Counted from the first letter of the stretch, positions 14,050 to 47,213 are shown. The stretch: DNA of 64,000 bases from Dehalococcoidia bacterium (GCA_965203985.1 CBDBDS010000013.1:517802-581801); one strand, 5' to 3'. Notes: a model not told the origin generated them from the letters alone. A program made the numbers and translations.

Positions 14050-14080
14050 CCAGCGCATCCGAACCCGATACGACGCGGCG

Positions 14081-14243: not shown

Positions 14244-14301
14244 AAAATATACGCTCCTCGCGATTGACAGGACAAACGCGTACCCACCCCGGAGGAACCC
14301 C

Positions 14302-15324
14302 ATGGCCACCACCGCTTTAGACACCCACACCGCCGAGGAATTCCGCGCCGCCACCGAGCGCGCCGCCGTGTACCCCGACGACTCCGGCATCCTGCTCCTC
14401 ACCGGCGAGGACGCTCGCGACCTGCTCAATCGCCTGTCCACCAACCTGATCGACCCGGACGCGCCGGCCGGCGAGGTCGCCGTCACCGTTCTCACCAGCG
14501 ACCGCGGCCGCATCGTGGACCTGGTACACGTCATCCACTGCGGCGACCACCAAGTCATGCTCACCAGCCCGGGCCAGCAGCAGAACGTGATCGATTTCCT
14601 GGACAAGTACACCATCATGGAGGATCTGGAGGTTGAGGACATCACGGACAAGACTTCCATGCTGCGGCTGACCGGTCCCGACGCGGCGAACCTGCTGGCC
14701 CGGGTTTCGGATGACGGCATCCTCGTGGTGGAGCCCCCGACGGACCCGGACGACCCGGAGCGGCCGCCCACCCGCTACCTGCTGGCCGACGATCCCAGCG
14801 ACGCCGCGCGCATCACCGCCGACCTGGAGGCGGCCGGCGTGGCGAGCATCAGCGCGGAAACGGCTGAGGCCCTGCGCATCGCCCAGGCCCGGCCGGCCCA
14901 CGGCGCCGAGATGAGCGACACCTACAACCCGCTGGAGGCAGGCCTCATCGGCGCCATCGACTTCCACAAGGGCTGCTACATCGGCCAGGAGGTCATCGCC
15001 CGCCTGGACACCTACCACAAGGTGCAGAAGTACCTGGTGTCCCTGGATTTCGACGCCGAACAGACCCAGGCCGGCGCGCTGCCCGGGTCTCGCCTGGTCA
15101 ACGACGAGGGTGCGGCCATGGGATTGGTAACCTCGGCGACGGTGGTTCCCGGAGCGGATGGGGCGCACGTCATCGGGTTGGGCTACGTGCGCACGGCGGC
15201 GGTGCAAGTCGGCGGCACGCTGCAGGTGGTCACTGAGGAAGATAACGGCGACGCCGGCATCAACGCGCGCATCACGGCCCAGCCGCTGCTCTTCGGCGCG
15301 GAAAAGCCGGGGCCGGGAAGGTAG
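14302..15324 (+). CDS. YgfZ/GcvT-like folate-binding protein
   Basis: Internal ATG after GGAGG. Conserved FHKGCYIGQEVIARL motif. Confidence 0.8.
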   Translation: MATTALDTHTAEEFRAATERAAVYPDDSGILLLTGEDARDLLNRLSTNLIDPDAPAGEVAVTVLTSDRGRIVDLVHVIHCGDHQVMLTSPGQQQNVIDFLDKYTIMEDLEVEDITDKTSMLRLTGPDAANLLARVSDDGILVVEPPTDPDDPERPPTRYLLADDPSDAARITADLEAAGVASISAETAEALRIAQARPAHGAEMSDTYNPLEAGLIGAIDFHKGCYIGQEVIARLDTYHKVQKYLVSLDFDAEQTQAGALPGSRLVNDEGAAMGLVTSATVVPGADGAHVIGLGYVRTAAVQVGGTLQVVTEEDNGDAGINARITAQPLLFGAEKPGPGR

Positions 15325-18556: not shown

Positions 18557-19126
18557 TCACGCCGGCCGTATCCGCCCGTCCTCGCCGGCCGTGAGCAATG
18601 CCTCGAAATTATAGCCCCGATCCCGAATAGCTTTGCTGCCGCCTTCATTCCGGTCCAGAACAGCTAGCACCAGCCCAACCTTACAACCAGCAGCCTCCGC
18701 CGCGGCGATGGCATGGAACAGCGACCCCCCGGTGGTGCAGGTGTCGTCCACGATGGCAACGGTCGCCGCCTCCGGCAGCGGGCCCTCGATCATTTGGGTC
18801 AGGCCGTGGCCCTTGGCCTCCTTTCGCACGATGAAAGCCGGCAGCGGCGCACCCTGCTGCCACGATGCCATAGCAGCGGCCGTCACGATGGGGTCCGCGC
18901 CCAGGGTCGGGCCGCCCACTGCGTCCACGCCGGCCTCAGCCAACATCGGCAGCAGCGCGTTGCCGATGAGATGCGCTCCCTCCGGATCCAGACTGAGCAG
19001 CCGTCCGTCGAAGTAGTACGAGCTCTTCTTGCCCGAGGAAAGCGTGAAATCCCCGTACCGGATGGCGCCTCGCTCCAACGCCAACGCCAGCAATCGGTCC
19101 GTCGAATCTCCGCTCCTCGTATTCAT
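18557..19126 (-). CDS. pyrE: Orotate phosphoribosyltransferase
   Basis: PRPP-binding loop VAIVDDTCTTGGS. Start placed at the internal ATG, which has a GGGGAGGG RBS. Confidence 0.85.
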   Translation of the reverse strand: MNTRSGDSTDRLLALALERGAIRYGDFTLSSGKKSSYYFDGRLLSLDPEGAHLIGNALLPMLAEAGVDAVGGPTLGADPIVTAAAMASWQQGAPLPAFIVRKEAKGHGLTQMIEGPLPEAATVAIVDDTCTTGGSLFHAIAAAEAAGCKVGLVLAVLDRNEGGSKAIRDRGYNFEALLTAGEDGRIRPA

Positions 19127-19150
19127 ACACCCTCCCCAGGCCGTCAACCA

Positions 19151-19798
19151 TCAGTCCTCGGCGCGGTACAACCTGTGCTCGTCAATATAAGCCGCCACCA
19201 CGTCCGGAATCTGGTATCGGGTCGATTGGCCACATGCCAGCACCCGGCGCAGTTCCGAGGCGCTGAAATCGACCCGCGGCCCGGCCACCGACACCACCGC
19301 GCCGGCATCCAGCGCGTCCGAGAAATTCCCCCGGAGCGTCGCTATTCCCTCCACGGGGCCGCCCGGCCGCTCGATGACCACCAGGTGGCACAGGTTCAGG
19401 ATGGCCTCCGGTTCCTTCCAGCGGTGGAACTGGTCCAGCACGTCCGACCCGACGATGAAGTACAGTTCCGTATCGGCTGAAAACCGGCGCCGCAGTTGGC
19501 GCAGCGTATCCACCGTGTACGTGGCCCCGGTGCGTCGGATCTCGCAATCGGACACGCAGAAGCCTGGGTTGTCGGCCACCGCCAGTTGGACCATCCGGAG
19601 CCGGTGTTCGGCCAGAGTGATGCGCTGACCCGACTTGAGCCAGGGCTCGCCGGCCGGCAGGAACATCACCGTATCCAGGTCCAGCGCGACCCGCGCCGTT
19701 TCGGCAATCAGCAGGTGGCCCAGGTGTGGCGGGTCAAACGTTCCGCCCAGGATGCCGATGCGGCGTCGGTGTGGTTCCTCAGAAGCCATCAGAACCAC
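19151..19798 (-). CDS. nadD: Nicotinate-nucleotide adenylyltransferase
   Basis: GILGGTFDPPHLGHL motif; overlaps the obg stop. Confidence 0.9.
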   Translation of the reverse strand: MVLMASEEPHRRRIGILGGTFDPPHLGHLLIAETARVALDLDTVMFLPAGEPWLKSGQRITLAEHRLRMVQLAVADNPGFCVSDCEIRRTGATYTVDTLRQLRRRFSADTELYFIVGSDVLDQFHRWKEPEAILNLCHLVVIERPGGPVEGIATLRGNFSDALDAGAVVSVAGPRVDFSASELRRVLACGQSTRYQIPDVVAAYIDEHRLYRAED

Positions 19799-21096
19799 TC
19801 CAACTCAGCGTCGCCGATGCGAATGGTGTCACCGGCCTCGATGCCAGCTTCCTCCAGCCGTTGCGCGATGCCCAGGCGGCTCATCTCCCGCCACAGTTGC
19901 AGCATGACGCGATAGTCCCGCATGTCAGCGCGCCCGGTGAGCCGCTCCAGCCGCTCCGATTCGATGACGTACACGTCGCCATCCAGGTAGAAACCCAGCG
20001 GCGGACGTTCTCGTGGCGCGCTGGCAGCCGGAACCTCGCTCTCCCACTCCGACGCGTCGATGCCATCGCGAGGAGCCTCGGCCAGGATGCGGACGAGATC
20101 GCCCAGCAGCCCATCCACGCCCGCGCCCGAGACCGACGATATGAAGTGGACTGGCGTGTCCACATCAGCAACGACCAAACCGTCGTCCATAGCCATGGCT
20201 CGCCGCAGTTCTTCCTCGATGACATCACGCAGTTCGTAGGTGTCGGTGGTATCCAGTTTGCTCACCGCCACCACCTGCGGCTTGGACGCCAGCATCGGGC
20301 TGAACTCGCGCAATTCCCGGTTGAGCATCAGAAAATCGCCAGCCGGGTCATCGGACAGCCCATCGATGAGATGGACGTACGCACGAGCCCGCTCGGCGTG
20401 GCGCAGGAACTGGTGGCCCAGGCCAATGCCCCGGTGCGCTCCCTCCAGCAGACCGGGGATCTCCATCATCACGAAGTCCTGGCCGCCGTGGGTGACCACG
20501 CCCAAAACCGGCTCCACCGTGGTGAAAGGATAGTCGGCAACCTTCGGCTTTGCCGCTGAGCAGCGGGAGATCAGCGTGGACTTGCCGGCGTTGGGCTTGG
20601 CCAGCAGACCCACGTCGGCCAACAGCTTGAGCTCCAGCCACAGCACTGAATATTCGCCCTTGTCGCCCGACTCCGACAGCATTGGCTCCTGGTTGGTCGA
20701 AGAAACGAACCGGGCATTGCCCCAGCCACCCTTTCCGCCGGTGGCCACCAGCACCGGTTCTTCCGTGGTAACGTCCGCCAGGAAGTCCTTCGTGCCATCC
20801 CGGTGCATGCGCCAGATCACGGTGCCCATGGGCACGCGTATCTCCGTATCCTTGCCGTTTGCGCCGCGCTGGTTCTTGCCCTTTCCGTGGGTGCCGCGCT
20901 GCAGGTAGAAGGTGCTGTTGTACTTCAGGTGCAGCAGCGTGTTGATGGACGAGTCGCCGACGATGTAGGCGCTGCCGCCATCACCGCCGTCGCCGCCATC
21001 GGGTCCGCCGCGGGGCTGATACTTGAGCCGGAGGAAACTGATGCAGCCATCACCCCCATTCCCTGCTTTTACGTTAATTCTTACAGTATCGATCAT
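19789..21096 (-). CDS. obgE: GTPase Obg/CgtA
   Basis: Gly-rich Obg fold KAGNGGDGCISFLR...GGDGGDGG, G1 KPNAGKST, C-terminal OCT-like domain. Confidence 0.95.
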   Translation of the reverse strand: MIDTVRINVKAGNGGDGCISFLRLKYQPRGGPDGGDGGDGGSAYIVGDSSINTLLHLKYNSTFYLQRGTHGKGKNQRGANGKDTEIRVPMGTVIWRMHRDGTKDFLADVTTEEPVLVATGGKGGWGNARFVSSTNQEPMLSESGDKGEYSVLWLELKLLADVGLLAKPNAGKSTLISRCSAAKPKVADYPFTTVEPVLGVVTHGGQDFVMMEIPGLLEGAHRGIGLGHQFLRHAERARAYVHLIDGLSDDPAGDFLMLNRELREFSPMLASKPQVVAVSKLDTTDTYELRDVIEEELRRAMAMDDGLVVADVDTPVHFISSVSGAGVDGLLGDLVRILAEAPRDGIDASEWESEVPAASAPRERPPLGFYLDGDVYVIESERLERLTGRADMRDYRVMLQLWREMSRLGIAQRLEEAGIEAGDTIRIGDAELEWF

Positions 21097-22999: not shown

Positions 23000-23656
23000 C
23001 TAGAGCGTGCGGAGGTATTGCAGGAGTTGGTCGGCGTGGGGACAGGCCGCGGCAACTTGCTGCGGGTCAATCTCGGCCAAAATACCGTAAGACCTTCTGC
23101 CTTTGCTGTAATGACGTCGGCATCGGAGTGTAGCCTGTCTCAACGTGCTCAGAGCATCTGCATTTAGGATTGTTTCCAAAGGTGGTAATTTCTGAAAGAC
23201 ACTTGTGTCAAGCGAGGAATCAAAAAAGCGCTGCAACGCCGGTGGGTCGGCTACAAACCAGGTTTCCATAGCCTGAACCATCATAAATGCGCTTTCATCA
23301 TCCGCATTTGTAGGTCTTTGGAAACGGTGCTGATGACGTGCTTGCAGGTGATCCCAAACAGTATGCCCGGCTGCGACAGGTTCCTCGCTGTCAACGAGCA
23401 GCAGGGGTTTTGGTTCTGTCTCTTCATGCTCTGCATAACGATTGAGCTGACTGTTGAACAGCGCGAAGGCTTCCTGCTGACCACCGCCAACAGCAATGTC
23501 CAAAATCTGCCCATTCACGCCCGCTTTGTTGAAGAAGATCTGCCAACCTCTACGAAAGGACTCGGCGTTATCATCCACCATGGCCGCACGGTCCATTTCC
23601 GACGGGTCCGGATCTGCTCTCCCGCCACCTTCTATGTACAGCCGGTATGTTACCAA
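23000..23656 (-). CDS. DUF4276 family protein (Toprim-like), partner of ATPase 23650..24903
   Basis: LYIEGGG, LLLVDSEEP, AMETWFVAD; overlaps the upstream ATPase stop by 7 nt. Confidence 0.75.
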   Translation of the reverse strand: MVTYRLYIEGGGRADPDPSEMDRAAMVDDNAESFRRGWQIFFNKAGVNGQILDIAVGGGQQEAFALFNSQLNRYAEHEETEPKPLLLVDSEEPVAAGHTVWDHLQARHQHRFQRPTNADDESAFMMVQAMETWFVADPPALQRFFDSSLDTSVFQKLPPLETILNADALSTLRQATLRCRRHYSKGRRSYGILAEIDPQQVAAACPHADQLLQYLRTL

Positions 23657-24903
23657 CGGTTCCCCCCCAGCTCACCGATACTCCACAGGTAGCCCAGGCT
23701 GTACTTTTCCAGCCACTGCTCCAACCGCTCGGGGTCAAGCCGCTTCATCTCCGTTTGGCCATCCCGCTTTTCGCAAATCACTACGCTTCCAGCGTAGTCC
23801 TCAAGTGCATTGACGAGCACACGGGAATGGGTTGTGACCACCAACTGCGTCCGCTCTGCTGCCTGTATCAACATCTCTCCAATGCACAATACCACGTCCG
23901 GGTGAATCCCCAGCTCCGGCTCCTCAATCACCACCAGCGGCGGTGGCTCCGGGTCCAGCAGGATGGCCGCCACCGCCATGTAGCGCAGCGTTCCGTCGGA
24001 GAGGCGAGATGCTGGGATGTAGCGCTCGCCGGCGCCTTTTTCCACGACGAAAATCTCCGCTCCGCCGCGGCCGACTTCAACCTGGAAACCCTCGATTCCA
24101 TCGTAGATCTGCTGCAACGTTTCAACGAATGCCTGCCGGCTGTCGCCTCTCAGTTTGGATAGCAGCAGCGCCAGGTTTTCGCCGCGTTCGGTTAAGAATG
24201 TACTGGGTTGGTCAGCCCGGGGCGGTTGGCGCAGCCTTGCCTCCGGCCCAAACTCCCAATTCCGGTACAGGCTTATCCGTCGATACTGCTCCTGTAGCCA
24301 CGCCAGTTCCGGGTACAGGTCAGGGTCGTCTCTCTGCGATAGTATGGATCCTTCGGGGTGAACGGTACTCCTGCGAAGCTTACGCTCCTTACGGGGGCCG
24401 CCGAGTTCGTCAATGAAGTCATTGATTACCGGATCGCCTCTCTGAAAGCGGTAGTAGAAATGCGGCTCCGTCTGGCCGGCGTTGGGGCTTTCGTTTTCAA
24501 TGCGTTCATCCCTGACCTCGAAACGTTCACCCTGCTGGCCGATTTCCAATACGTGGCGTAGCGGCATCACGCCGTCCGGATAGTTGACCAGCGCATCAAC
24601 CACACCCGCTGCAGGAGCATCATTCCCTTTCCAAAGCCATTCCGAGATGCCGCTCGGCCGCCTGACCGGCGCGGACAGGTCCCGCGGCGCCGCCTGCAGC
24701 AGCGCCAGCGCCTCAATGAAGTTGGACTTGCCCGACCCGTTCGGCCCGATGAGCACGTTCAGCGGCTCCATGGGCAGGTCAATGCCCTTTGGCCCGAAGG
24801 ACAGCATCCCGCTGATTTTCAGCCGGCGTATGAGTATGTTGCCGGCGTTCGACCGCCCGGCCGTCTCGTCGGCAGCGTCAATGGCGGAATCAACGGAGGT
24901 CAT
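23650..24903 (-). CDS. ABC/SMC-like ATPase (AAA_21-type), paralog of 3110..4288
   Basis: Start moved to MTSVDSAID (ATG 24903). GPNGSGKS, LSDGTLRYM, VVIEEPELGIHP, TTHS, C-terminal LGYLWSIGELGG. Confidence 0.85.
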   Translation of the reverse strand: MTSVDSAIDAADETAGRSNAGNILIRRLKISGMLSFGPKGIDLPMEPLNVLIGPNGSGKSNFIEALALLQAAPRDLSAPVRRPSGISEWLWKGNDAPAAGVVDALVNYPDGVMPLRHVLEIGQQGERFEVRDERIENESPNAGQTEPHFYYRFQRGDPVINDFIDELGGPRKERKLRRSTVHPEGSILSQRDDPDLYPELAWLQEQYRRISLYRNWEFGPEARLRQPPRADQPSTFLTERGENLALLLSKLRGDSRQAFVETLQQIYDGIEGFQVEVGRGGAEIFVVEKGAGERYIPASRLSDGTLRYMAVAAILLDPEPPPLVVIEEPELGIHPDVVLCIGEMLIQAAERTQLVVTTHSRVLVNALEDYAGSVVICEKRDGQTEMKRLDPERLEQWLEKYSLGYLWSIGELGGNRW

Positions 24904-24943
24904 GCTCCGGCCTCCCGGGTGGGGTTGTGCAGGTGGAACGCGC

Positions 24944-25363
24944 CTACAGCCCCAGCGCCTGCGCTCCCAGGCGGGCCAGGTCCTCGTCCTCCTGGGCGGA
25001 GAGACCGCTGACGCCGATGGCGCCGAGGACCAGGTCGGTCTCGGGGTCGCGGACGACCACGGCGCCCTGCACGGCAACCAGTTGCGGGTCGCCGAAGTCG
25101 GCGATGTTGCGACCCTCGTTCTTCAGCCGCTGGGCGTAGGCGTCTGAGTCGGAGCCGGACATGGCGGAGGTGTAGGCCTTGCTGACGGCCATGCGCTGGG
25201 GCAGGGCGCGGCAGTTGTCCATGCGGGCGTAGCTCAGCAGCTTGGCGTCGGCGTCGACAATGGCGATGGCCAACGGGCGGTCGGGTTCCTGTTCGGCCTT
25301 GTCCAGCATGGCTCTCATGGCGGCGCGAACCTGGCTCAGGCTGAGGGTGGGGCGGTTGTACAT
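24944..25363 (-). CDS. GlcG/HbpS-like heme-binding protein (DUF336)
   Basis: AIAIVDADAKLLSYARMD..., GAIGVSGLSAQEDE. Confidence 0.75.
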   Translation of the reverse strand: MYNRPTLSLSQVRAAMRAMLDKAEQEPDRPLAIAIVDADAKLLSYARMDNCRALPQRMAVSKAYTSAMSGSDSDAYAQRLKNEGRNIADFGDPQLVAVQGAVVVRDPETDLVLGAIGVSGLSAQEDEDLARLGAQALGL

Positions 25364-28226: not shown

Positions 28227-28664
28227 ATGGCGACCCAGAGCAACGACCGGAGAATCCAGTACCTCGGAACGGCCGGATGCGACGACGATACGGTCCGGTT
28301 CATAACTCGGGCGATTGCCGAGAGCATCGAGAAAGAGGCCAAACCTGCTCTCCGTTCCGCCGCGCGAGAAACCGCCGCAGCCAAGAAGGATATCGAAAGC
28401 CTCTTGAGCCGGTGGCCTGAACCGGAACACTTCCGACTGCTGAGCTCCAAGATTGCCGGCCTGAGCGACGAACAAATCAGCCTCGCCAGCGCTTACGCGG
28501 CTTGCCAGATATATGAAACGGCGGCTACCGCGCTCTATTTGGCCATCGTGGAAGGTATGGCTCCGGTCGTCACCGAGGAAGCATCCGACGCAGCCACTAT
28601 GGAGAGAGACCAAGCGATAGCGGATGCCGGATACACCGACGAGGTGGCCCGATGGCCCAAGTGA
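28227..28664 (+). CDS. Hypothetical helical protein (candidate antitoxin of 28652..29320)
   Basis: 145 aa from the internal ATG of ORF 27672..28664; overlaps the downstream MazF-like gene by 13 nt. No known domain recognised. Confidence 0.45.
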   Translation: MATQSNDRRIQYLGTAGCDDDTVRFITRAIAESIEKEAKPALRSAARETAAAKKDIESLLSRWPEPEHFRLLSSKIAGLSDEQISLASAYAACQIYETAATALYLAIVEGMAPVVTEEASDAATMERDQAIADAGYTDEVARWPK

Positions 28665-29320
28665 CCACTGGGCGCATCTATGAATGCGACGGTCACAGCC
28701 AGGAAGGCCACGAGCTAGCTGCAAATCATCCCATAATAGTAGTGGGCAGACAAAGCCTGATCGACAATCAACGTATCGCCATAGTAATACCGCTGACCAA
28801 CGCCCGACCCAACCACCCGGTGCATTGGGCCGTGGAGATTGAAGATACGAACTCACACGCCTACATCCGCCACGTCAAATCGGTTCACGTAACAAAAATC
28901 GGAAGATTCCTCGGCACGGCTACGCTTGATGAAATCGATAGCATCAAAGACGGACTGGCGAGGGAACTCCAATACGACACCCATGAGTGTGCCACAGCCT
29001 TGGGGCGGGAGGTATATCCGGGCAGTTTATGGTCGGCATCTATACCAAACGCCCGCGGACTGAGCTACGAGGGCGAACTCCTAATCCTTACGTCTAACCG
29101 GGATACCGGAATGGCAACCGCCCTGGCTGTGGACCCGCAACCTCGCAACAATCCAAGACAAACCATCCCCGTAAGGCTTGAGAATCCGGAACAACTGGCG
29201 TTCGCTATCACGTACCAAGTCAGATCTGTTTCTACCGAGGAGCGTCTCACCGGATATCGAGGAGATATCTCAGATGAGTACTTGAGGTTCGCAAAGTCGG
29301 CGCTGATCAGGTGCATATAA
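28652..29320 (+). CDS. Tandem (duplicated) MazF/PemK-like toxin-fold protein
   Basis: Two internally alignable halves. Half 1: GRIYECD..HPIIVVG..IAIVIPLT..IRHVKSVHVTKIGRFLGTATLDEIDSIKDGL. Half 2: GSLWSAS..GELLILTS..ATALAVDP..ITYQVRSVSTEERLTGYRGDISDEYLRFAKSAL. Confidence 0.55.
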   Translation: MAQVTTGRIYECDGHSQEGHELAANHPIIVVGRQSLIDNQRIAIVIPLTNARPNHPVHWAVEIEDTNSHAYIRHVKSVHVTKIGRFLGTATLDEIDSIKDGLARELQYDTHECATALGREVYPGSLWSASIPNARGLSYEGELLILTSNRDTGMATALAVDPQPRNNPRQTIPVRLENPEQLAFAITYQVRSVSTEERLTGYRGDISDEYLRFAKSALIRCI

Positions 29321-29455: not shown

Positions 29456-29812
29456 ATGACCATGACCCCCGCCCGCAGTTCACCCTTCGCCGCCATGGCC
29501 CGCGATCCGCTGCATCCCGATGTGATCTACCGGGACGAGCGCTGTTTCGTGGTGCGCGACATCAACCCCAAGGCGCCGGTGCATCTGCTGATCATCCCCA
29601 ACATGCCCATCAATGGCCTCGATTACATCAGCCCGGCCATGGAAGCCACCATGGGGCACCTCTTCGTCGTTGCCGCCGAGATGGCACGGCGCGAGGGCGT
29701 CACCATCAGCGGCTACCGCCTGGTGGTCAACAACGGCGAGGACGCCGGCCAGACCATCGCCTGGCCCCACATGCACCTGCTGGGCGGCCGGGGACTGGGA
29801 GATATGGGCTGA
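29456..29812 (+). CDS. HIT family protein (histidine triad nucleotide-binding)
   Basis: AAGGAG RBS. APVHLLIIP and the histidine triad WPHMHLLGG. Confidence 0.85.
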   Translation: MTMTPARSSPFAAMARDPLHPDVIYRDERCFVVRDINPKAPVHLLIIPNMPINGLDYISPAMEATMGHLFVVAAEMARREGVTISGYRLVVNNGEDAGQTIAWPHMHLLGGRGLGDMG

Positions 29813-30253: not shown

Positions 30254-30856
30254 ATGACCACCATCGAAATCTCCGACCGCGTGGTCGATCGTATCCACCG
30301 CCGGATCCGCCGCCTCCCGCCCGGGCTCCAGGAGCACTGCCAGCGGGTGGAGCAGATCGCCCGTGGCCTCGCCGAGCGCCACGGGCAGGACGTGGAAGCT
30401 ATCGGCCTGACGGGTCTGGCCCACGACGCCACCAAGCACTTCTCCGGCTTGGAGAACCTGCTCCGCATGGAAGAGTACGACCTGCCTCCGGTCACCGAGT
30501 TCGAGCGGCGCAACCCGGACATCCTCCACGGCATGGTGGGCGCGGAGTTGCTCAAGCGCGAGGACGGCCTGGGTCATCCTCAACTCTACAACGCCATCTA
30601 CTGGCACACCACCGGCGACCCGACCGGCGGCGACTCCATCGCCCACATCGTGTTCCTGGCCGACAAGCTGGACCCGGTAAAGGTGAAGCGTTACCCCTGG
30701 CAGGGCGAGCTGAAGGAACTGGCGGAGAACGACCTCCCCGCCGCCATGATCATGTTCCTGACCAGGAATGTGGTCCGGATGCTGGACAAAGGCTCGGCGG
30801 TGCACCCCGCGTCGATTGAAGCGCGGAACACGTTGCTGTTGGCGACAGCATCGTAG
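30254..30856 (+). CDS. yqeK: HD-domain protein, YqeK-like bis(5'-nucleosyl)-tetraphosphatase
   Basis: GLAHDATKH (HD), ILHGMVGAELL, FLADKLDP. Confidence 0.65.
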   Translation: MTTIEISDRVVDRIHRRIRRLPPGLQEHCQRVEQIARGLAERHGQDVEAIGLTGLAHDATKHFSGLENLLRMEEYDLPPVTEFERRNPDILHGMVGAELLKREDGLGHPQLYNAIYWHTTGDPTGGDSIAHIVFLADKLDPVKVKRYPWQGELKELAENDLPAAMIMFLTRNVVRMLDKGSAVHPASIEARNTLLLATAS

Positions 30857-30897: not shown

Positions 30898-31188
30898 ATG
30901 AAGTACGATGTTGTTGTCTGGCGTGGGACCCTGTCCGACGGTTCCACCTGCTACGCTGCAGTTTGCCCGGCTATCAATTATGCTCACGGTCAAGGCGACA
31001 CTGAGGCCGAAGCCCTGGCTGAAGCGGCGGCCACCATGGCCGGCTTTCTGGAAAGGATGCCCGGCGTAGCTAAGTCGGGTCAGGCGGCTCAAGACGAGCT
31101 GACGGAAAAACTCGCTGATTTGGCCTCGGAAGGCATCGCCCATTGGGTGCGTCAGGTTGAACCTGCTATTGCGCCGACGCTCGCATAA
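30898..31188 (+). CDS. HicB-like antitoxin (UPF0150 fold), array 1 copy 1
   Basis: MKYDVVVWRGTLSDGSTCYAAVCPAINYAHGQGDTEAEAL, the classic HicB N-terminal pattern. Confidence 0.7.
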   Translation: MKYDVVVWRGTLSDGSTCYAAVCPAINYAHGQGDTEAEALAEAAATMAGFLERMPGVAKSGQAAQDELTEKLADLASEGIAHWVRQVEPAIAPTLA

Positions 31189-31190
31189 AG

Positions 31191-31493
31191 ATGGTCAGGA
31201 TAGCTAATGTCAAGACCCGAGAATTGCTCCGTTTGCTGCGAAGGATGAGGTTCGTTCAGGACAACCGTGACCATATCTATTTTTACCATGAATGGTTGAG
31301 GACGAGCGAAGGCCGGTTGTGGACGCAAGTTTCTCATGGTGACAAAGAGATTGACGCGGACTTGATGGGCGACATCGCCATCAAGCAGCTCAAGATGAAC
31401 AGCGCCGAAGAATTCCGCGCCGCCCTCCGGGGCAATATCCCTCGCCGGTATCTCGACCCCGACGCGCCGTGGGACGGCCAGCCCCTGGACTAG
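31191..31493 (+). CDS. HicA-like toxin with C-terminal tail, array 1 copy 1
   Basis: VKTRELLRLLRRMRF...RDHIYFYH...VSHGDKEIDADLMGDIAIKQLKM, plus the tail EFRAALRGNIPRRYLDP. Confidence 0.65.
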   Translation: MVRIANVKTRELLRLLRRMRFVQDNRDHIYFYHEWLRTSEGRLWTQVSHGDKEIDADLMGDIAIKQLKMNSAEEFRAALRGNIPRRYLDPDAPWDGQPLD

Positions 31494-31509
31494 CCTGAGG
31501 ATGTGAAAC

Positions 31510-31800
31510 ATGGAATTTGACGTTGTCTTTTGGCGCGGAACCTTGTCCGATGGTTCCACCTGCTACGCGGCGATTTGCCCGGCCATCGATCATGCTCATG
31601 GCCAGGGAGACACGGAAGCTGAGGCTCTGGCTGACGTTGCGGATACCATGGCCATCTATCTGGATCATGAGCCGGAAAGATTCAAAACCGGACAAGGAGC
31701 TCAGGATGCGATCCGTAGATTGACGGAGGAACTGGACGAGAATGGAACCTCCTGCTGGGTGAAGCAGGTCGCCCCGGCGCGCAATCGAGTGCCCGCTTAG
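31510..31800 (+). CDS. HicB-like antitoxin, array 1 copy 2
   Basis: MEFDVVFWRGTLSDGSTCYAAICPAIDHAHGQGDTEAEAL. Confidence 0.7.
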   Translation: MEFDVVFWRGTLSDGSTCYAAICPAIDHAHGQGDTEAEALADVADTMAIYLDHEPERFKTGQGAQDAIRRLTEELDENGTSCWVKQVAPARNRVPA

Positions 31801-31803
31801 GTT

Positions 31804-32091
31804 ATGGTTAGGATTGCCAACGTCAAGACCAGGCAGTTGCTTCGATTACTGCGCAGGATGGGCTTTACACAAAGCAACCGGGACCATGCTTACTTCATAC
31901 ATGCTTGGCTGCGCCTGCGGACAAAGGTGTCGCATGGAGACAAAGAAGTGGACGCCGATCTGATGGGAGAGATCGCTATCGTGCAACTCAAAATGAACAG
32001 CGCCGAGGAGTTTCGCGCCGCCCTCCGGGGCGATATTCCACGCCGCTATCTCGATCCCGACGCGCCGTGGGACGGCCAGCCCCTGGACTAG
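31804..32091 (+). CDS. HicA-like toxin with C-terminal tail, array 1 copy 2
   Basis: Paralog of 31191..31493; the last 36 nt including the stop are identical between the two copies. Confidence 0.65.
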   Translation: MVRIANVKTRQLLRLLRRMGFTQSNRDHAYFIHAWLRLRTKVSHGDKEVDADLMGEIAIVQLKMNSAEEFRAALRGDIPRRYLDPDAPWDGQPLD

Positions 32092-32099: not shown

Positions 32100-32429
32100 A
32101 TGACCGCACAGCTTGAAATAACCCCCGAAGCCGCTCAGTTCATCCGTCATAAAGGCGGGCAGGCCGTCATCGACCTGATCTGCTGGAAGGGTTGAAGCGG
32201 CGAGTCCGTCGAGGTATCGGTCGATACCAACGTGCGCCGTCGCCGCAGCCTGGAGTCCTACGACCCCGCCAGCCAGGACGACATCACCCTGTACCTGGCC
32301 CCCGGCATCGCCGAATACGCTCAGCAGGTCAGCCTGTCCATGAGCCGGTTCCTGCTCTTCCGGAACCTGAAGGCCACCATCGTGCTACCCCACGGCGTCA
32401 CGCTGGGCCGGCGCGCCTCGCTCGTCTAG
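32100..32429 (+). CDS. Candidate small selenoprotein (in-frame TGA at 32193-32195), or a disrupted gene
   Basis: ATG 32100, 31 codons, TGA, then 77 more codons in the same frame to TAG 32427-32429. Track ORFs 31905..32195 and 32232..32429 share this frame. Local context is C-W-K-G-TGA-S-G. Confidence 0.45.
32197..32246 (+). promoter_or_regulatory. SECIS-like stem-loop downstream of the in-frame TGA
   Basis: Outer helix gcggcga/tcgccgc (32197-32203 / 32240-32246). Inner hairpin cgt-cga-ggtatc-[ggtc]-gatacc-a-acg (32207-32232) starts 11 nt after the TGA. Confidence 0.4.
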
Positions 32430-32998
32430 CTCTCAATCGCCGGCAGCAGATCGGCCACGGCGCAGGCGAAGCCGGGCAGGTAGTCCCCGCCGTCCACCGT
32501 GTCGGCGTCGGTCAGAACCAGCGGCGGCGCATCGGGAGTGTGCACCGTCAGGGTGCGGGCGTCGATGTCAATTACCCAGACGGCTTTGCCGCCGGCGCCC
32601 AGGTATTCGCGGATCTTTTGGGTTATTTCCGCCAGCGTATTGCTCTCGGACAGGATTTCCACAGCGAGGTCCGGCGCACCGTTGTAGAGCTTTCCCGCCA
32701 GGTCGGGTTGCGCCAGCCGTGCGTTGGAAATGAATGAAACGTCGGGCATCCGTGACGTGGACGGCGAATCCGGCCCGGTGACGTACCCTCGGTTGCCGGT
32801 GTACACCCGCCCCAACCGGTTGGGGAAAACATGCGCCGCCATCCGCCAATTGACCAGGGAACCGGTGTGTTCGTGTTCTTCTGACGCAACCATCAGTTCA
32901 ATCAGGACCCCGTTGACCAGCTCGTAGCGGGGATGCTTGGGCAGCGCAGCGTACTCCTCCAGCATCACCGGCGGCGCGGCAGTTTGTTGCGTAGTCAT
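32426..32998 (-). CDS. Uma2 family endonuclease (tandem copy 1)
   Basis: GGAGGT RBS. MLEEYAALPKHPRYELVNG, APDLAVEILSESN, GGDYLPGF. Confidence 0.85.
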   Translation of the reverse strand: MTTQQTAAPPVMLEEYAALPKHPRYELVNGVLIELMVASEEHEHTGSLVNWRMAAHVFPNRLGRVYTGNRGYVTGPDSPSTSRMPDVSFISNARLAQPDLAGKLYNGAPDLAVEILSESNTLAEITQKIREYLGAGGKAVWVIDIDARTLTVHTPDAPPLVLTDADTVDGGDYLPGFACAVADLLPAIES

Positions 32999-33012
32999 GT
33001 GGCACCTCCGGG

Positions 33013-33582
33013 TCAGAGAACCGGCAGCAGATCCGCCACGGCGCAGGCGAATCCGGGCAGATAGTCCTCGCCGTCCACGGTGTCGGCGTTGGTCAGAACC
33101 AGCGGCGGCGCGTCTGCGGTGTGCACCGTCAGCGTGCGGGCGTCGATGTCAATTACCCAGACGGCTTTGCCGCCGGCGCCCAGGTATTCGCTGATCTTTT
33201 GGGCTATTTCTGCGGGAGTGTTGCTTTCTGAAAGGATCTCGACGGCTAAGTCCGGCGCGCCATCGTAAAGCATCCCTGCCACGTCCGGCCGACCCAATCG
33301 GGCATTGGAAACAAAGGAAACGTCGGGCATCCGCGACGTAGCCGGCGAGTCGGGGCCGGTAACGTAGCCTCGATTGCTGCCATAGACTTTACCAAGTCGG
33401 TTCGGATAAACGTAATTGCCGACGGCAAGGCCAGAAAGGATAACCGTTTCCTCATGCTCATCAGATGCTACCATCAGCTCGACCAGGACTCCTTTCACCA
33501 ACTCGTAGCGCGGGTGCTTGGGCAGCGCGGCGTACTCTTCCAGTGAAACCGGCGGCGCGGCGGCGGTTGGTTGAGTCGTCAC
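33013..33582 (-). CDS. Uma2 family endonuclease (tandem copy 2)
   Basis: GTG start with GGAGG RBS. Close paralog of 32426..32998, with the same C-terminal ...GFACAVADLLP. Confidence 0.85.
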   Translation of the reverse strand: MTTQPTAAAPPVSLEEYAALPKHPRYELVKGVLVELMVASDEHEETVILSGLAVGNYVYPNRLGKVYGSNRGYVTGPDSPATSRMPDVSFVSNARLGRPDVAGMLYDGAPDLAVEILSESNTPAEIAQKISEYLGAGGKAVWVIDIDARTLTVHTADAPPLVLTNADTVDGEDYLPGFACAVADLLPVL

Positions 33583-33613
33583 GTTGGGGCCTCCGTATTA
33601 TCGGTACTTGTTA

Positions 33614-34186
33614 TCATGAGCGCAGCCGGGGCAGCATATCCGCCACGGCGCAGGTGAAGCCCGGCAGATAATCTTCCCCATCCACGGTATCGCCGTCGGT
33701 CAAAACCAGCGCCGCCACGCCGGGTCGGTGTACTGTCAACATCCGTCCGATGGGGTCAAAAACCCAGACCGCCTTACTGCCGGCTGCCAGGTACTCGGCA
33801 GCCTTCTGCGCTATCTCGCGTTCGGTGTTGCTGGGAGACAGCACCTCCACCGCTAGGTCCGGCGCGCCGTCAAACAGTGCTCCGAAAAGATCGGGCCGCA
33901 ACCGCTCGTTGGACACAAACGATACATCGGGCAAACGGGATGAGGCCGGCGATTCCGGGCCGGTTACGAACGCACGGTTGCTGCCGTAAACTTCCCCCAA
34001 GTCGTGCTCGTCAGCGTGCCAGTCCACGTGGCGAGATACTCTCACTACCGTTATTTCATGTTCTCTGGATGCGTACATTTTCTCAACCAGCACACCTTTC
34101 ACCAGTTCGTAGCGAGGAAACTCCGGCAATGCGGCAAACTCCTCCAACGTCACCAGTCGGGTGGTGGTTGCGTTCCTGGTGGCCAT
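33614..34186 (-). CDS. Uma2 family endonuclease (tandem copy 3)
   Basis: Start at the internal ATG with GAGGAGG RBS. APDLAVEVLSPSN, GEDYLPGFTCAVADMLP. Confidence 0.85.
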   Translation of the reverse strand: MATRNATTTRLVTLEEFAALPEFPRYELVKGVLVEKMYASREHEITVVRVSRHVDWHADEHDLGEVYGSNRAFVTGPESPASSRLPDVSFVSNERLRPDLFGALFDGAPDLAVEVLSPSNTEREIAQKAAEYLAAGSKAVWVFDPIGRMLTVHRPGVAALVLTDGDTVDGEDYLPGFTCAVADMLPRLRS

Positions 34187-34214
34187 GGCAAAACCTCCTC
34201 GCAAAATGTCGGGG

Positions 34215-35746: not shown

Positions 35747-36673
35747 TCATTGACGATATCGCTCGATGATTGCCGCCGCGGACGAGTCAAGCCCTGGGAA
35801 CAGTGTTTGGCGCGTGACATTCAGCAGCCGCAGCTCCTCCATAATCTCAGCTTTGCTCTCCTTGGGTATGTCCAGCGTGTAATGGGCATAGACCGGTATG
35901 CCTTCGTTCCACTTTAAAATCTCATCCCGCTCAAATCGCTGGTGAAAAGCCGATACCAGAAAAGCGCCGGATTGCGCCCTGATGCGTTCCGATGATTGTT
36001 GCGGCTCAACTACGAAAACGCGATAAAAGTCTCTGGGGTCAATCCGCGCCGAAAAGTAAGGCTTTTCCGTCCGAATTATCTGGCAGAGATTGTACATGGC
36101 TGTGTTGTAGCTTGTGTCATGCGGGAGGTGCATACATGTCTTGCCCATGAGGGCGTATTGGTCGTAGATGGGCAGTTTTGCGAAGTTAGCTATGACGGAT
36201 ACAGTGTCGCTGTTAAAAGGCTTGACCAACCATGGTGGTATACCAAATATATGGAGGCGGCCGTCCTTTGATGTACTTGCACTCTTTTCCGATTTCTCAC
36301 AGGCGTGAAACAGGGCGACCAATGGGTTGCTAGTGATGTCCAGGAAGCGCGTTTTGAGGCCATGGTGCTGGGCTAATACCCATTGGGCGATAGCTGAACT
36401 CCGCTCGTTAAAGTCTTCGGGCCGCTGGGCAATGAGGTCAATCAGCATCCTGCTTTCCGATCCAGTAGGGCTGTTGTTCCGCATTATGGAGGGGCGTAAT
36501 TGCCAGTCATTTTCGTATTCCCCGCGAAAATAGAACAATGTATCAGCTTTGGTGTTGTTATAAAATATTTGCAACGTCTTGATTAGGTCCAGTAGTTCTT
36601 TGACAGAATTGACAGCATTGGCAACGTCATCATAACCATTGGTGCTAGTTTGAGATTGTTTTGAAAATGCCAC
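35747..36673 (-). CDS. FRG domain-containing protein
   Basis: LFYFRGEYENDWQLRPSIMR contains the eponymous FRG motif. Visibly lower G+C than the flanks. Confidence 0.7.
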   Translation of the reverse strand: MAFSKQSQTSTNGYDDVANAVNSVKELLDLIKTLQIFYNNTKADTLFYFRGEYENDWQLRPSIMRNNSPTGSESRMLIDLIAQRPEDFNERSSAIAQWVLAQHHGLKTRFLDITSNPLVALFHACEKSEKSASTSKDGRLHIFGIPPWLVKPFNSDTVSVIANFAKLPIYDQYALMGKTCMHLPHDTSYNTAMYNLCQIIRTEKPYFSARIDPRDFYRVFVVEPQQSSERIRAQSGAFLVSAFHQRFERDEILKWNEGIPVYAHYTLDIPKESKAEIMEELRLLNVTRQTLFPGLDSSAAAIIERYRQ

Positions 36674-36723
36674 GAGGTTCCACTATGCTGTGAGTTGACG
36701 ACACTCCACAGCGGAGGAACCTC

Positions 36724-37509
36724 GTGAACATTGCCGATTTTATCACCGAACTGTACTGCAAAATAGACGATGCCATGCCGCGGGCGCCCCGGCACTCCCA
36801 GGCGGTCCTCGCGCTCAGCGAACTGGTCACCATCGGTGTCCTCTGGGCTATGAAGAACGTCAAGCAGCGGCCCTTCTACCGTTGGCTCAAAGACAACTAT
36901 GGCCACCTCTTTCCCAAACTGCCCCATCGCACCCGGCTCTTCCGCCGCTTACAAGCCCAACAGGACTGGACCGGCTACTTCCTGGCCCAACCCACCGTCC
37001 TGGGCGTGGCCGACAGCTACGGGGTGGAACTGCGCCATCCCGTGCGGGATGGGCGACGGACGGACCAGATCGGCCGGAAAGGCAAGTCCAACCACCGTTG
37101 GATCAGCGGTGGCAAGCTCTGCATCGTACAGAACCAGTGGGGCTTGATCACCGATTGGGACTGCGCTGGCGCCAATGTCCACGACCAGACTTTTCGGCTC
37201 CTGCTCGCTGGCTACGACGGTCAAATGATTATCCTCACCGACACCGGCTTTCACCGGGCTCAAGGCGACCCGGCCAACGTCAAGGTCTGCAAGCGCGGCC
37301 AGTGGAACGTGCGGATGGCGGTGGAAACCACCTTCTCCATGATGTCCGTGGTCTGGAACACCAAAGAGATGCGCCATCGAGTGTGGGAGGGTTTCAGCGC
37401 CCATCTGGCCTACACCGTCGCGGCTTTCAACATCCTGGCGCAATGGAATGGATTGGAACCAGACGCTAATGGACGCATCCACCGCTCTATTGCTCATTTC
37501 ACCCTCTGA
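36724..37509 (+). CDS. DDE transposase, IS982-family-like
   Basis: 261 aa, GTG start. ELYCKIDDAM..., VADSYGVELR, KGKSNHRWISGGKLCIV, ILTDTGF, RMAVETTFSMM. Element ends not resolved. Confidence 0.6.
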   Translation: MNIADFITELYCKIDDAMPRAPRHSQAVLALSELVTIGVLWAMKNVKQRPFYRWLKDNYGHLFPKLPHRTRLFRRLQAQQDWTGYFLAQPTVLGVADSYGVELRHPVRDGRRTDQIGRKGKSNHRWISGGKLCIVQNQWGLITDWDCAGANVHDQTFRLLLAGYDGQMIILTDTGFHRAQGDPANVKVCKRGQWNVRMAVETTFSMMSVVWNTKEMRHRVWEGFSAHLAYTVAAFNILAQWNGLEPDANGRIHRSIAHFTL

Positions 37510-38243: not shown

Positions 38244-39740
38244 TCACACCCGCAGTATCCCCCGTATCCGCAACTGCTGTTTCAGGTAGCCCATGTCACG
38301 GTTGCCCTTGATGGCGTTGCAGGTGTGGCACATCAGCCACAGGTTGGCTACGGAGACCTGGCCGCCCCGGGACCGCGGCGTGATGTGATCGATGGTCAGC
38401 ACGTGCAGGGGCAATTCGTACTCGCAGCCGGCGCACCTGCCGTGTTGACTGCGATACAGCAAGGCCCGGTCCGACTGAGGGTCAGCCGGGCTCAATAACG
38501 TCAGGTCGTTTCTTCGGGGAGGCTCCCGCAGCACCATTGGGGTCCAGTCCTCCCACGGCTTTTCGTCGCCACCGTTCATCGGTATTTGCAATTCCCGCCT
38601 GGCCCGTTGCGTCAGCACCTCGGCAGCCTGTGGCAGTATGTCAATGCCAATCCATTGCCGATCCAGCTTTTCGGCGGCGATGCACGCCGTGGCGCAGCCG
38701 CAGAACGGATCCAGCACCAGGTCGCCCGGGCTGGACGAGGCGTTGATGATGCGCTCCAGCAGCGCCAGGGGCTTTTGCGTCCGCCATCCCGTCCGCTCAA
38801 CGGACCGGGGCGGTATGGGACGTATGTCAGTCCACTGGTTGGTGGGGACCTGACCCGTGTTACTGGCGAGGTAGCGCTTCAGGGATGGCATAACATTGTC
38901 GCCTGGGTAATAAATCAACCCTGCTGCATCGAGCGCATCCAAACGCTCCAGTGGACTGGCAATGTCGCGGTAGCCGGAAGTTACATTCCCGTCAATCCAG
39001 GCGGCGTAACTTCCCGTCATGGGAACTGCCCAGTGCCGCCCGATTCGGTTAGGGTCATGCCCGCGCCAGGGCTGTCCCGTTTCCCCATAACGCAATTCTG
39101 CCGCGGTAAGGTCTCCCAAGCGGTACGCGCCCCGCTCGTCTTCGTGCCGGTAAAACTGTTCTACATAGTCGTCGTCCAGCGGAATACGGACTTCGTTTGA
39201 GTTTATCCTGGGCTGCCGGCTGTAAAACAGAATGATGTCGCGCACCCTGCCGAAGTTTCGTGGATCGTTATGCGCGGAAGTGCGTTGCCAGCTTATTTGC
39301 GCCCGGTAATTGTTTGCCCCAAAGATCGCGTCCATCACCGATTGCAGGTAGTGGCCGGCCGTATCGTCACAGTGCAGGTAGATGCTGCCCGCCGGTTTCA
39401 GCACCCGGTGGAGTTCCAGCAACCGGATGCTCATGAACGTCAGATAGCCGGCCATGCTCTCCCCGTGGGACAGCCGAGCGCCGTTGACGAGGTGAAACAA
39501 CGCCGGCAGCCGGTATTCGATCTCATCGATCCACTCCTCTTTCATATCGTCCAGCGTCCATACGTCGTCGAACTCGGCGCCCCGGGCCTCGCTGTCCAGC
39601 GGCGCGGCGTAGGTCCGGTTGGAGTTGAACGGCGGGTCCAGATAAATGAGATCAACGCACTCGGAGTTGATCCCCCGCAGGATGTCCAGGTTGTCCCCGG
39701 TGAAAATGGTGCGGCTGGGCACGTTGCACGCGCTGGGCAT
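38244..39740 (-). CDS. DNA methyltransferase (N6A/N4C, beta-class order) fused to a C-terminal HNH nuclease domain
   Basis: Motif IV LIYLDPPFNSN precedes motif I VLDPFCGCATA. C-terminal CAGCEYELP...IDHITPRSRGG...NLWLMCHTCNAIKG is an HNH domain with CxxC pairs. Confidence 0.8.
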   Translation of the reverse strand: MPSACNVPSRTIFTGDNLDILRGINSECVDLIYLDPPFNSNRTYAAPLDSEARGAEFDDVWTLDDMKEEWIDEIEYRLPALFHLVNGARLSHGESMAGYLTFMSIRLLELHRVLKPAGSIYLHCDDTAGHYLQSVMDAIFGANNYRAQISWQRTSAHNDPRNFGRVRDIILFYSRQPRINSNEVRIPLDDDYVEQFYRHEDERGAYRLGDLTAAELRYGETGQPWRGHDPNRIGRHWAVPMTGSYAAWIDGNVTSGYRDIASPLERLDALDAAGLIYYPGDNVMPSLKRYLASNTGQVPTNQWTDIRPIPPRSVERTGWRTQKPLALLERIINASSSPGDLVLDPFCGCATACIAAEKLDRQWIGIDILPQAAEVLTQRARRELQIPMNGGDEKPWEDWTPMVLREPPRRNDLTLLSPADPQSDRALLYRSQHGRCAGCEYELPLHVLTIDHITPRSRGGQVSVANLWLMCHTCNAIKGNRDMGYLKQQLRIRGILRV

Positions 39741-39897
39741 AAGATCACCTCAGGGGAGAGTCTAGCAGCCGTCAAAGACGGCGGACAAGGCAGAAGTGTC
39801 ACCAACTGCACCTCGCTCTCCGAACGACGGTGCGGCCAACCCGCCCGGTGTAGTACGATTGCTGCGAGCAATCCGTAATCCAAGGAGCCCACCCACC

Positions 39898-45502: not shown

Positions 45503-47213
45503 CCCGAATCCACCGAAGGGATACTGCAGCAGTGGTCAGACGAGGGATTAGGGGTCAGGGAACGGGCCGGCGGTAGCCTGATGTCGGAGAGATGGACGAT
45601 GTGGAGTGTAGCAGCCACGCCGGAGGGATTTTGACGGCCTGTGGTAGAAGTCTGGGCGCGATTTTCGACACCAGATCACAGGCGGAGACCGCCAGGGGCC
45701 CAGCCTGAGCGCTGATGGGCCAGGCAGTTGGGTAATCTGTTGGACAGGTCAAACGCCGAGGGCGTGATCAAGAAGGGAGCGGCAGGGCGCGCAATCGGGC
45801 CAGGGCAGAGCTGAACTGGTTTTGCCAGGGCCAGCCCTGGGGCAGATGCAAGGTGAGGCGACGTGCCTTGCGGGTGATGCGTCCGGCCAGGGAGAAGAAG
45901 CGTCGCCGGAGGGTCTTGGTGGTGGCCACCGGCTCGCACAACCCGAGACGTGTCGTCCAGCGGGCGAGGTTATGGGCGATGACTTGCACCGCCAGCCAGG
46001 CGGCGTTGGCGGGAAAGCGACCCGATGGCAGATGGTTGAGGCCCACGCCGTACTTGAGGTCGCGGATGGCGTTTTCGATCTCGGCGTGGCGGCGATGGTC
46101 GGCTTCGAGATCCAGGGTGTCGCCCTCACGGTCGGTGATGAAGGCGTGATAGCTGTATTCGGTAAGCAGGGCCAACTGGGAGCCGGGGGTGGGCGTCACC
46201 CGGCGGACGATGAGCCGCACCGGCACGGCATAGGGCTCATGCTGGAAGGGAGTATATTCAGTTTCGGCCACGTCGGCGCCGCCCTCCATCCAATAGGGTA
46301 TGGGCGTCCAATCCTCTTCGGGTATGGCCTCGATGAGATTGCGCACGATTGGTTGCTGGCGGACGGTGATGGAGTAGCGGACCTTCATCTTGCGACAGGC
46401 GGCGACGATGTCGCGGTTATAGAAGCCGCTGTCGGCACGCATGGTCAATGGTCCGGTGGCCCCGGCGTAGCGCACTCGGCTGATGGTCTCACGCAGGAAG
46501 TGGGCGGCGCCCCGAGCGGTGTTGGCTCGGCCCTTGCGCAGGCGGGCCATCAGCACGTCGCCCGTCCCAGCAGCGACGGCGAAGAGCGGGTGATAGCCAC
46601 GCTGACCGGCGTAGTTGTGGCGCTGCGCGCCCTCCTTGCACAGGCCGTAGGTCTCGCAGACGGTGGAGTCCAGGTCGATGGTCAACGGCTCGTCGCCCGG
46701 ACCGGCGCCGGCGACCCAGGCTCGGGCCAGCGCCTCACGGCTCACTCGATCCAACTGGCGCGCATGGCCCCACTGGAAACTCCGCAGAAAGGTGCCCAGC
46801 GTGGACGGCGCCTTCACCGCGCAGCCCAGCACCTGTGCGGTCCCGCCAGCGCGCAGCGCGTCGGCGTCGTCAATGCAGTCCCCACCGGCCAGCGCCGACG
46901 CCACCAGCGTCAGCAGTTTGTCTCCCGCGTTGGCTCGACCCGGCGCATCCCCCAGATCAACATGGCGGTCCACCAGCTCTCCCAGTCCCAGATGATGGGC
47001 CAGGGTGACGGGCAGAATCAGCCCAGCATTGGCCACCAGGCGGGCATCATCAAACGCGATTTGGATGCGGTCGGGGCGCTCAGGTGGTAGCATCCGATGG
47101 GTGCTCCTTGTGAGGGGTTGGTTTTCTGTGACAAAAACCATTATCCCCGAAGCCGGGAGCACTTTCTCATCCCATCAGCACGCCGCCAAACTCATCATTT
47201 CGGTGGATTGGGG
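45503..47213 (-). mobile_element. IS1380-family insertion sequence (1711 bp) with 5-bp target-site duplication CTTAG
   Basis: Terminal inverted repeats cccgaatccaccgaa (45503-45517) and ttcggtggattgggg (47199-47213). CTTAG at 45498-45502 and 47214-47218. Confidence 0.8.
45768..47162 (-). CDS. IS1380 family transposase
   Basis: 464-aa ORF (GTG start; an alternative start is MLPPERPDRIQIAFDD...). ANAGLILPV, GDCIDDADAL and DDE-type layout typical of IS1380. Confidence 0.8.
   Translation of the reverse strand: MLPASGIMVFVTENQPLTRSTHRMLPPERPDRIQIAFDDARLVANAGLILPVTLAHHLGLGELVDRHVDLGDAPGRANAGDKLLTLVASALAGGDCIDDADALRAGGTAQVLGCAVKAPSTLGTFLRSFQWGHARQLDRVSREALARAWVAGAGPGDEPLTIDLDSTVCETYGLCKEGAQRHNYAGQRGYHPLFAVAAGTGDVLMARLRKGRANTARGAAHFLRETISRVRYAGATGPLTMRADSGFYNRDIVAACRKMKVRYSITVRQQPIVRNLIEAIPEEDWTPIPYWMEGGADVAETEYTPFQHEPYAVPVRLIVRRVTPTPGSQLALLTEYSYHAFITDREGDTLDLEADHRRHAEIENAIRDLKYGVGLNHLPSGRFPANAAWLAVQVIAHNLARWTTRLGLCEPVATTKTLRRRFFSLAGRITRKARRLTLHLPQGWPWQNQFSSALARLRALPLPS

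Follow-up and report, generated by a model that had tools for sequence, protein, structure and literature searches.

The CC/Se family of selenoproteins was first predicted in Moorella thermoacetica, where the protein carries a CxxU motif, and its function is not known (PMC13188914). Members are about 100 residues in length and contain a single selenocysteine (Sec) in the first third of the chain, with a SECIS element located directly 3' of the Sec codon. The family is represented in NCBIfam by NF041239 ("CC/Se motif family (seleno)protein", Moor_selen_rel), the Pfam counterpart of which is PF28096 (CC_Se_fam). For the SECIS elements of bacteria, a published model has an upper stem of 4-16 bp, an apical loop of 3-9 nt with at least one G in its first two positions, a distance of 16-37 nt from the UGA to that loop and an MFE of -7.5 kcal/mol or lower (PMC13188914). 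Within a 64,000-nucleotide stretch of DNA from a Dehalococcoidia bacterium (termed here the window), positions 32100-32429 very probably make up one gene that encodes a 109-residue selenoprotein of the CC/Se-motif family and carries a functional SECIS element. The gene is an unannotated newcomer in an already catalogued family. A selenoprotein had been proposed here in the initial annotation of the sequence, and the proposal is backed by conservation of the TGA codon, by a coding signature on both sides of it and by a conserved hairpin that agrees with the SECIS model.

The frame claimed in that annotation, from ATG through an in-frame TGA to TAG, is present, and both of its translations are identical to ours. 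The product reads MTAQLEITPEAAQFIRHKGGQAVIDLICWKG-U-SGESVEVSVDTNV...GRRASLV (109 residues). A mechanical ORF list divides the same region into two ORFs in one frame, the second of which begins at GTG 32232; start codons are absent between the TGA at 32193-32195 and this GTG. Features of the gene and of its conserved upstream neighbors are shown in Table 1. Residues invariant in the family are G19, G20, I24, D25, U32, G34, E38-T43, R48, Y54, L85, L90, K91 and G103.

Table 1. Positions of the selenoprotein gene, its parts and its upstream neighbors. Entropy is the mean at codon positions 1/2/3 for 31 distinct sequences of the window's clade.
Feature	Position	Strand	Entropy	Remarks
HinT-like HIT gene	29456-29812			5' of yqeK
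yqeK, HD-domain Ap4A hydrolase	30254-30856	+		TIGR00488, 86.6 bits (cutoff 70.15); conserved upstream neighbor
Selenoprotein gene, complete	32100-32429	+		ATG 32100 to TAG 32427-32429; 109 codons plus TAG
N-terminal part, 31 codons	32100-32192	+		5' of UGA; translated
Codons 2-31			0.27/0.07/0.79	5' of TGA; 70% of pairwise codon differences synonymous
UGA, probable selenocysteine, residue 32	32193-32195	+		TGA at the aligned column in 53/56 related loci
Possible lower helices	32190-32250	+		Window's clade; GGUU (including the U of UGA)/ARCC and GCGGCG/CGCCGC; weak
C-terminal part, 77 codons	32196-32426	+		Alone matches NF041239 model positions 47-88
Codons 33-37 (S G E S V)	32196-32210	+	0.04/0.17/0.83	Coding stretch from UGA to hairpin; 77% of codon differences synonymous
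Hairpin codons 38-44 (GAG GTA TCG GTC GAT ACC AAC)			0/0/0.03	
Probable SECIS core	32213-32228	+		5' arm GGUAUC 32213-32218, loop GGUC 32219-32222, 3' arm GAUACC 32223-32228
Codons 45-109			0.31/0.21/0.93	

With Sec written as Cys, the product matches NF041239 at 44.7 bits (E = 1e-11; curated cutoff 40), residues 4-92 aligning with model positions 2-88 of 91. The initial annotation had guessed at this family from the overall shape of the protein, and the guess was right. Taken separately, the first 31 residues match model positions 2-24 and the last 77 another part of the model (Table 1), so the two ORFs represent two parts of one domain. All of the other clades described below match NF041239 at 28-40 bits; the Chloroflexota branch as a whole thus spans 28-45 bits, near the cutoff. 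Relatives in the protein database carry PF28096 as a precomputed label. A Pfam scan with a copy of the database that lacks PF28096 gave no match for the read-through protein, nor for P0072, a relative 39% identical to it. The architecture of 31 codons, TGA and a downstream part recurs in 26 species-level genomes. It shares with the known family the approximate length, the single Sec and the position of the SECIS; it differs from the family's CxxU representative in having C-x3-U, and among its sister clades the motif is CxxU or UxxC, or Cys is not found nearby.

DNA was obtained for 55 related loci from Dehalococcoidia and Chloroflexota genomes and metagenomes, and codons at the Sec column were tallied over 56 loci; a metagenome scan gave 9 loci. 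TGA occupies the same codon in 53 of the 56, which represent at least six clades and about 60% protein divergence (down to about 37% identity). In the window's clade there are 35 loci, which include 26 from different species-level Dehalococcoidia or Chloroflexota genomes, among which at least 10 records are titled "chromosome" (1.5-4.5 Mb). Throughout this clade codon 32 is TGA and the 31 residues 5' of it are conserved. TGA is found at this column in five more distant clades as well, at 37-42% identity. The exceptions are two loci with CGA (L044 and L045) and one with GGA (L043), and none of the 56 has TGC, TGT or TGG. The initial annotation had posed the question of whether Cys or Sec occupies this column among homologues: the Sec codon is found in all but three loci, and the Cys form in none.

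The three exceptional loci retain an intact SECIS hairpin. CGA (Arg) occurs in two samples, at L044:620-622 and in L045, and GGA (Gly) occurs at L043:290-292, in an assembly with 1.4x coverage. The proteins with G or R at this column had looked like sense-codon forms; the underlying codons are GGA and CGA, and neither protein is a Cys form. The three loci reflect either sequencing error or a recent loss of Sec.

Elsewhere in the window TGA is an ordinary stop codon, as had been noted from the first; it terminates the genes for Obg, AlaRS, an aldehyde dehydrogenase and other well-matched proteins. Moreover, the selenoprotein genes of L051 and L053 themselves stop at TGA and retain the internal TGA. 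Recoding is therefore local and specific to position, rather than genome-wide. Two other pairs of ORFs in the window are separated by a single in-frame TGA with high GC3 on either side, and were considered as selenoprotein candidates. Both were rejected: the translations of the pair at 18557-19804 (-) read as adjacent genes for NadD and then PyrE, and the pair at 50024-51232 (+) consists of adjacent genes for a small protein and a Uma2-like protein.

The hairpin lies where the initial annotation had placed it, beginning with CGU at 32207, 11 nt past the TGA, and including the core GGTATC-GGTC-GATACC. This core is the only exact copy in the window, where sequences with up to 3 mismatches number 3, compared with 0.42 expected by chance. 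A 71-nt region around it folds with an MFE of -29.2 kcal/mol (z = -1.9), and 9 of 200 shuffled sequences fold equally well. At 62% G+C, the stability of the fold alone is thus not beyond chance; its conservation is. Compared with the published model, the loop GGUC has 4 nt and the stem 6 bp, and the loop begins with GG. Among 20 aligned family members G is found at loop position 2 in all 20 and at position 1 in 19, the remaining loop being CGUG (L042). From UGA to loop there are 23 nt in the window (32196-32218), compared with 20 nt in L040. Predicted energies are -7.7 kcal/mol for the 21-nt element and -25.8 kcal/mol for a 62-nt segment, with -6.2 kcal/mol for the bare 16-mer. A check of the element against SECIS models had been suggested at the outset; the hairpin falls within the published limits, and no Rfam family matches it at either of two thresholds.

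Conservation of the hairpin, which had been named as a test of its reality, is evident in the nucleotide sequence. Among 31 sequences, a single codon is used at 6 of the 7 amino-acid-invariant codons in the hairpin (codons 38-44), versus 2 of 40 elsewhere in the gene, and a freezing of synonymous sites as strong as this did not arise in any of 200,000 permutations. The two exceptions outside the hairpin, Cys28 (TGC) and Gly31 (GGT), lie just 5' of the UGA (window 32181-32192). GGU-U may form the basal part of the SECIS by pairing with ARCC at 32247-32250; alternatively, Sec decoding may constrain the codon context at this site. Family-wide, the apical stem is paired in 100% of cells, whereas slid registers pair in 22-58%. 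Stem pair 4 covaries (A-U in 10, G-C in 9, G.U in 1 and no mismatches), and although none of 500 shuffles reached the observed score, covariation in the core stem rests on this one base pair and shuffle statistics can be inflated by relatedness among sequences. The change from GUA/GAU to GUG/GAC is compensatory and is synonymous on both sides; a G.U intermediate is present in L033, and the A.C combination was not seen. The nucleotides of the hairpin also specify the invariant peptide E-V-S-V-D-T. Some of their conservation must therefore stem from constraint on the protein, and RNA and protein constraints overlap and are entangled at this site.

An outer helix enclosing the hairpin had also been claimed. 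The 6-bp stem and GGUC loop form the conserved core, whereas support for the outer helix is confined to the window's clade, in which one compensatory pair was found. An RNAalifold consensus of 29 sequences includes a pair 8-54 that is GC in 15, CG in 6, GU in 3 and broken in 5, and pairs of positions 1-4 with 58-61 that are paired in all; in the distant clades the lower helices are untraceable. The element resembles the fdhF-type SECIS of Escherichia coli and the bSECISearch consensus in being a hairpin within the coding region immediately after the UGA, with a small loop that starts with G. It is unlike the fdhF element in its family-specific sequence, GGUC on a plain 6-bp stem. The fdhF SECIS has a bulged U, for which there is no evidence in the window element.

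These properties suggest that the UGA at 32193 would be read as Sec during translation because of the mRNA hairpin GGUAUC-GGUC-GAUACC, which lies 17-33 nt downstream. The hairpin would act as a bacterial SECIS and be bound by SelB-GTP-Sec-tRNA(Sec), the SelB step being drawn by analogy from established Sec decoding in bacteria. At the level of the lineage, Dehalococcoidia metagenome-assembled genomes with 46-49 selenoproteins are recorded in BSepDB (PMC13326102), and SelA and SelB co-occur in most bins of sponge symbionts (PMC5649159). Neither selA, selB, selD nor tRNA-Sec was detected in the 64-kb window or in any fetched flank (39 window ORFs compared with NCBIfam models, 42 loci as well as the window scanned for tRNAs, and Rfam searched at both thresholds). 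This result would fit a read-through of the UGA without Sec, with Trp, Cys or Gly supplied, for example, by a suppressor or near-cognate tRNA and with the hairpin as a general stimulator, as would the public proteins with W or G at this column and the rare GGA and CGA variants. However, W proved not to be a sense codon in the one case that was checked: at L042, the locus of P0071, the codon is TGA, and translation under code 4 turned both it and the gene's real TGA stop into W. If Trp or Cys were inserted, moreover, it would be odd that TGG and TGC are found at 0 of 56 loci. The hairpin has all of the features specific to a SECIS, the G-rich apical loop among them; curators treat the family as one of selenoproteins, and the lineage is reported to be rich in them. 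Read-through without Sec therefore seems improbable, and decoding as Sec the preferred reading. Three further entries with W at this column (P0070, P0072 and P0075) are presumably artefacts of code 4, by analogy with P0071. Such "full-length" entries bear the PF28096 label and could mislead alignments into placing Trp at the Sec site.

Public records of the gene are fragmentary. Of 44 close database matches, 43 are C-terminal fragments of 59-81 aa, mostly 65-73 aa, which begin 3' of the Sec column; the other, P0044, is an N-terminal piece. A profile of the N-terminal 45 residues retrieved 66 clusters of peptides of 29-67 aa, mostly 29 or 31 aa, and all 12 that were inspected end exactly before the Sec column. 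No match to this profile was 100 aa or longer and none was a full-length Cys protein. Known full-length entries were missed as well, so that recall was imperfect and the finding that no true Cys homologue exists in the Chloroflexota branch is valid for the sampled loci and proteins only. A C-terminal profile retrieved fragments and a few long, repetitive proteins that we regard as spurious. One apparent "CC" protein, P0078 (123 aa, "...LICCKTLLEPGC..."; L046:5001-5372), was rejected because it had arisen through two frameshifts in a 4x long-read contig, and in another frame the true N-terminus and TGA of L046 can be seen. In every public record that was examined the gene is thus mis-annotated, as a "hypothetical protein" of 59-81 aa, as a peptide of 29-31 aa or as a false full-length protein containing W; gene callers routinely split it in two at the UGA.

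That every public annotation shows two pieces is also what would be seen if the TGA were a true stop, ending a 31-residue peptide, with re-initiation or coupling then giving a second protein of about 65-77 residues and the hairpin serving, for example, mRNA stability or ribosome pausing. A start for the second protein could be the GTG at 32232, and codon 37 is GTG in some relatives. The coding signature, however, continues past the TGA (Table 1). In the window, as in many relatives, codons 33-37 lie before the first start codon that follows the TGA, and selection at the protein level would operate there only if ribosomes pass the UGA. Both pieces, furthermore, make up one curated single-domain model and one predicted IscA-like domain, and the reading frame across the TGA is kept in all clades, even where the spacing has changed by exactly one codon (L040). 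A true stop is accordingly very improbable. A pseudogene or assembly error, in which a nonsense mutation struck an ordinary Cys or Trp codon, appears effectively refuted by the comparative data and has a negligible chance of being correct: TGA is one base from TGC and TGG, and low-coverage contigs of relatives do carry errors such as the L046 frameshifts, but the same TGA is present in 53 loci from independent assemblies, including the "chromosome" records, with purifying selection on both sides.

For the selenoprotein itself, the initial annotation had taken the Cys four residues before the TGA as part of a redox motif. This idea is not borne out, because the Cys is not conserved across clades. 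Relative to Sec it is located at -4 in the window's clade (C28-x3-U32) and in P0072 and P0074, at -3 in L038 (CxxU) and at +3 in L036 (UxxC); a nearby Cys is absent in L040, L042 and L047-L055. The conserved feature of these proteins is thus something other than a fixed Cys-Sec redox couple.

The fold was predicted with AlphaFold2 for P0072, with W in place of Sec and an alignment of 28 rows. The model (pLDDT 81, pTM 0.72) shows one compact IscA-like domain with strands drawn from both pieces of the protein. When it was compared to the PDB with Foldseek, the best 9 matches were to SufA (2d2a), IscA (three entries: 1x0g, 1r94 and 1s98), HI1723, AQ_1857 and DsrR (2k4z), with probabilities of 0.87-1.00 (0.9-1.0 for SufA and IscA) and TM of about 0.5; beyond these the scores drop to noise. 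The relationship to IscA emerged from the fold comparison only, and a profile search of PDB sequences gave nothing meaningful. Profile alignments to E. coli IscA (its sequence verified against 1R94 and 1S98) and to the window's ErpA place Sec on the first cluster-ligand Cys (GUSG versus GCSG), though each alignment is insignificant (probability 3-7%). P0074 has a faint full-length match to PF01521.

The proteins thus resemble the IscA/SufA/ErpA group (PF01521, TIGR00049) in predicted fold, in an N-terminal "ITxxAAxxI" helix and in a G-C/U-S-G loop that aligns with the first ligand Cys. They differ from it in that the three-Cys pattern C...CxC is represented at the first position alone, as Sec; the C-terminal 77 residues of the product are devoid of Cys and hence lack CxC, and the sequence similarity is insignificant. 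The term "HesB-like" used in the initial annotation therefore holds at the level of fold, where the predicted structure matches SufA and IscA; it does not extend to the HesB-like selenoprotein model TIGR01911, which gave no match at E <= 10. Proteins of that family are likewise small, with Sec followed by x-G, and their parent family has the HesB/IscA fold that is predicted here too. They form a distinct curated family, however, and the window protein lacks a Pro after the Gly, its motif being U-S-G-E rather than UxGP.

The structural model suggests for the product a fold of the HesB/IscA type, that of A-type Fe-S carriers, in which Sec takes the site of the first ligand and CxC is missing. 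Lacking CxC and a conserved partner Cys, it would most likely present a single selenol rather than act as a canonical three-Cys Fe-S carrier. DsrR, which has the IscA fold without Cys ligands, is a precedent for use of the fold in a non-carrier role. A canonical ErpA with all three Cys (GCSG...CGC) is encoded in the window at 13651-14049, so that the selenoprotein is not the housekeeping carrier. Only tentatively can a role be suggested: a single exposed selenol might carry or ligate a sulfur, selenium or metal species, or be a redox center, possibly across a dimer.

The ErpA gene is part of a separate arrangement at 13651-15324 (+), in which the gene for the ErpA/IscA carrier (TIGR00049, 120 bits; GCSG...CGCG) ends at a TAG and a YgfZ/GcvT-like folate-binding protein is encoded directly after it without a change of frame. 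These two neighbors are a classic Fe-S maturation pair.

Upstream of the selenoprotein gene are yqeK and the HinT-like gene (Table 1), and the order HIT, HD, selenoprotein gene is kept in distant clades (L036-L038 and L046). This linkage may simply be a conserved order of housekeeping genes, as Obg, NadD and AlaRS are encoded nearby. Between yqeK and the selenoprotein gene, at 30898-32091 (+), there are two tandem HicB-like/HicA-like pairs (96 + 100 aa and 96 + 95 aa). In the first pair, the second gene matches HicA_toxin weakly (E = 0.0024, short of the Pfam cutoff), and the first genes of both pairs are HicB-like in appearance with no family match. The number of such pairs varies from 0 to 3 among related loci. 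On the other side, at 32426-34204 (-), three tandem genes of the Uma2 family (PF05685) are convergent with the selenoprotein gene, and the first of these overlaps its stop codon by 4 nt (CTAG); relatives have 1-3 copies of Uma2 at this location. The window is also rich in defense and mobile genes, which include two MAD3-like AAA ATPases, a MazF/PemK-domain protein, an FRG-domain protein, IS982-like and IS1380-family transposases and a DNA methyltransferase fused to an HNH domain. These are found at 6098-7237 (-), 23653-25122 (-), 28652-29320 (+), 35750-36673 (-), 36694-37509 (+), 38247-39749 (-) and 45771-47174 (-).

Taken together, a speculative and rather doubtful picture of the branch would be that of a Sec-obligate offshoot of HesB/IscA that has lost CxC and has neither a fixed partner Cys nor Cys counterparts. 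Its selenol would do what a thiol cannot, for example carry or deliver selenium, persulfide or metal, and its SECIS and EVSVDT peptide would be mutually locked. The position after hinT-yqeK might then reflect a link to nucleotide or stress signaling.

The current understanding of selenoproteins is not overturned by this gene, and its family is already known. What is new is the Chloroflexota branch, in which the partner Cys is not conserved and Cys forms seem to be missing, and the assignment of an IscA fold by prediction. A widespread branch, found in sponge symbionts and in the deep ocean, is thereby added to the CC/Se selenoproteins, and the nearby Cys that had suggested a redox couple is shown to be non-conserved. 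The SECIS of the family is simple and invariant enough to provide an annotation rule for Dehalococcoidia and marine Chloroflexota. The CC/Se family as a whole gains a testable structural hypothesis, that of a predicted IscA-like fold in which Sec occupies the position of the first ligand and CxC is missing.
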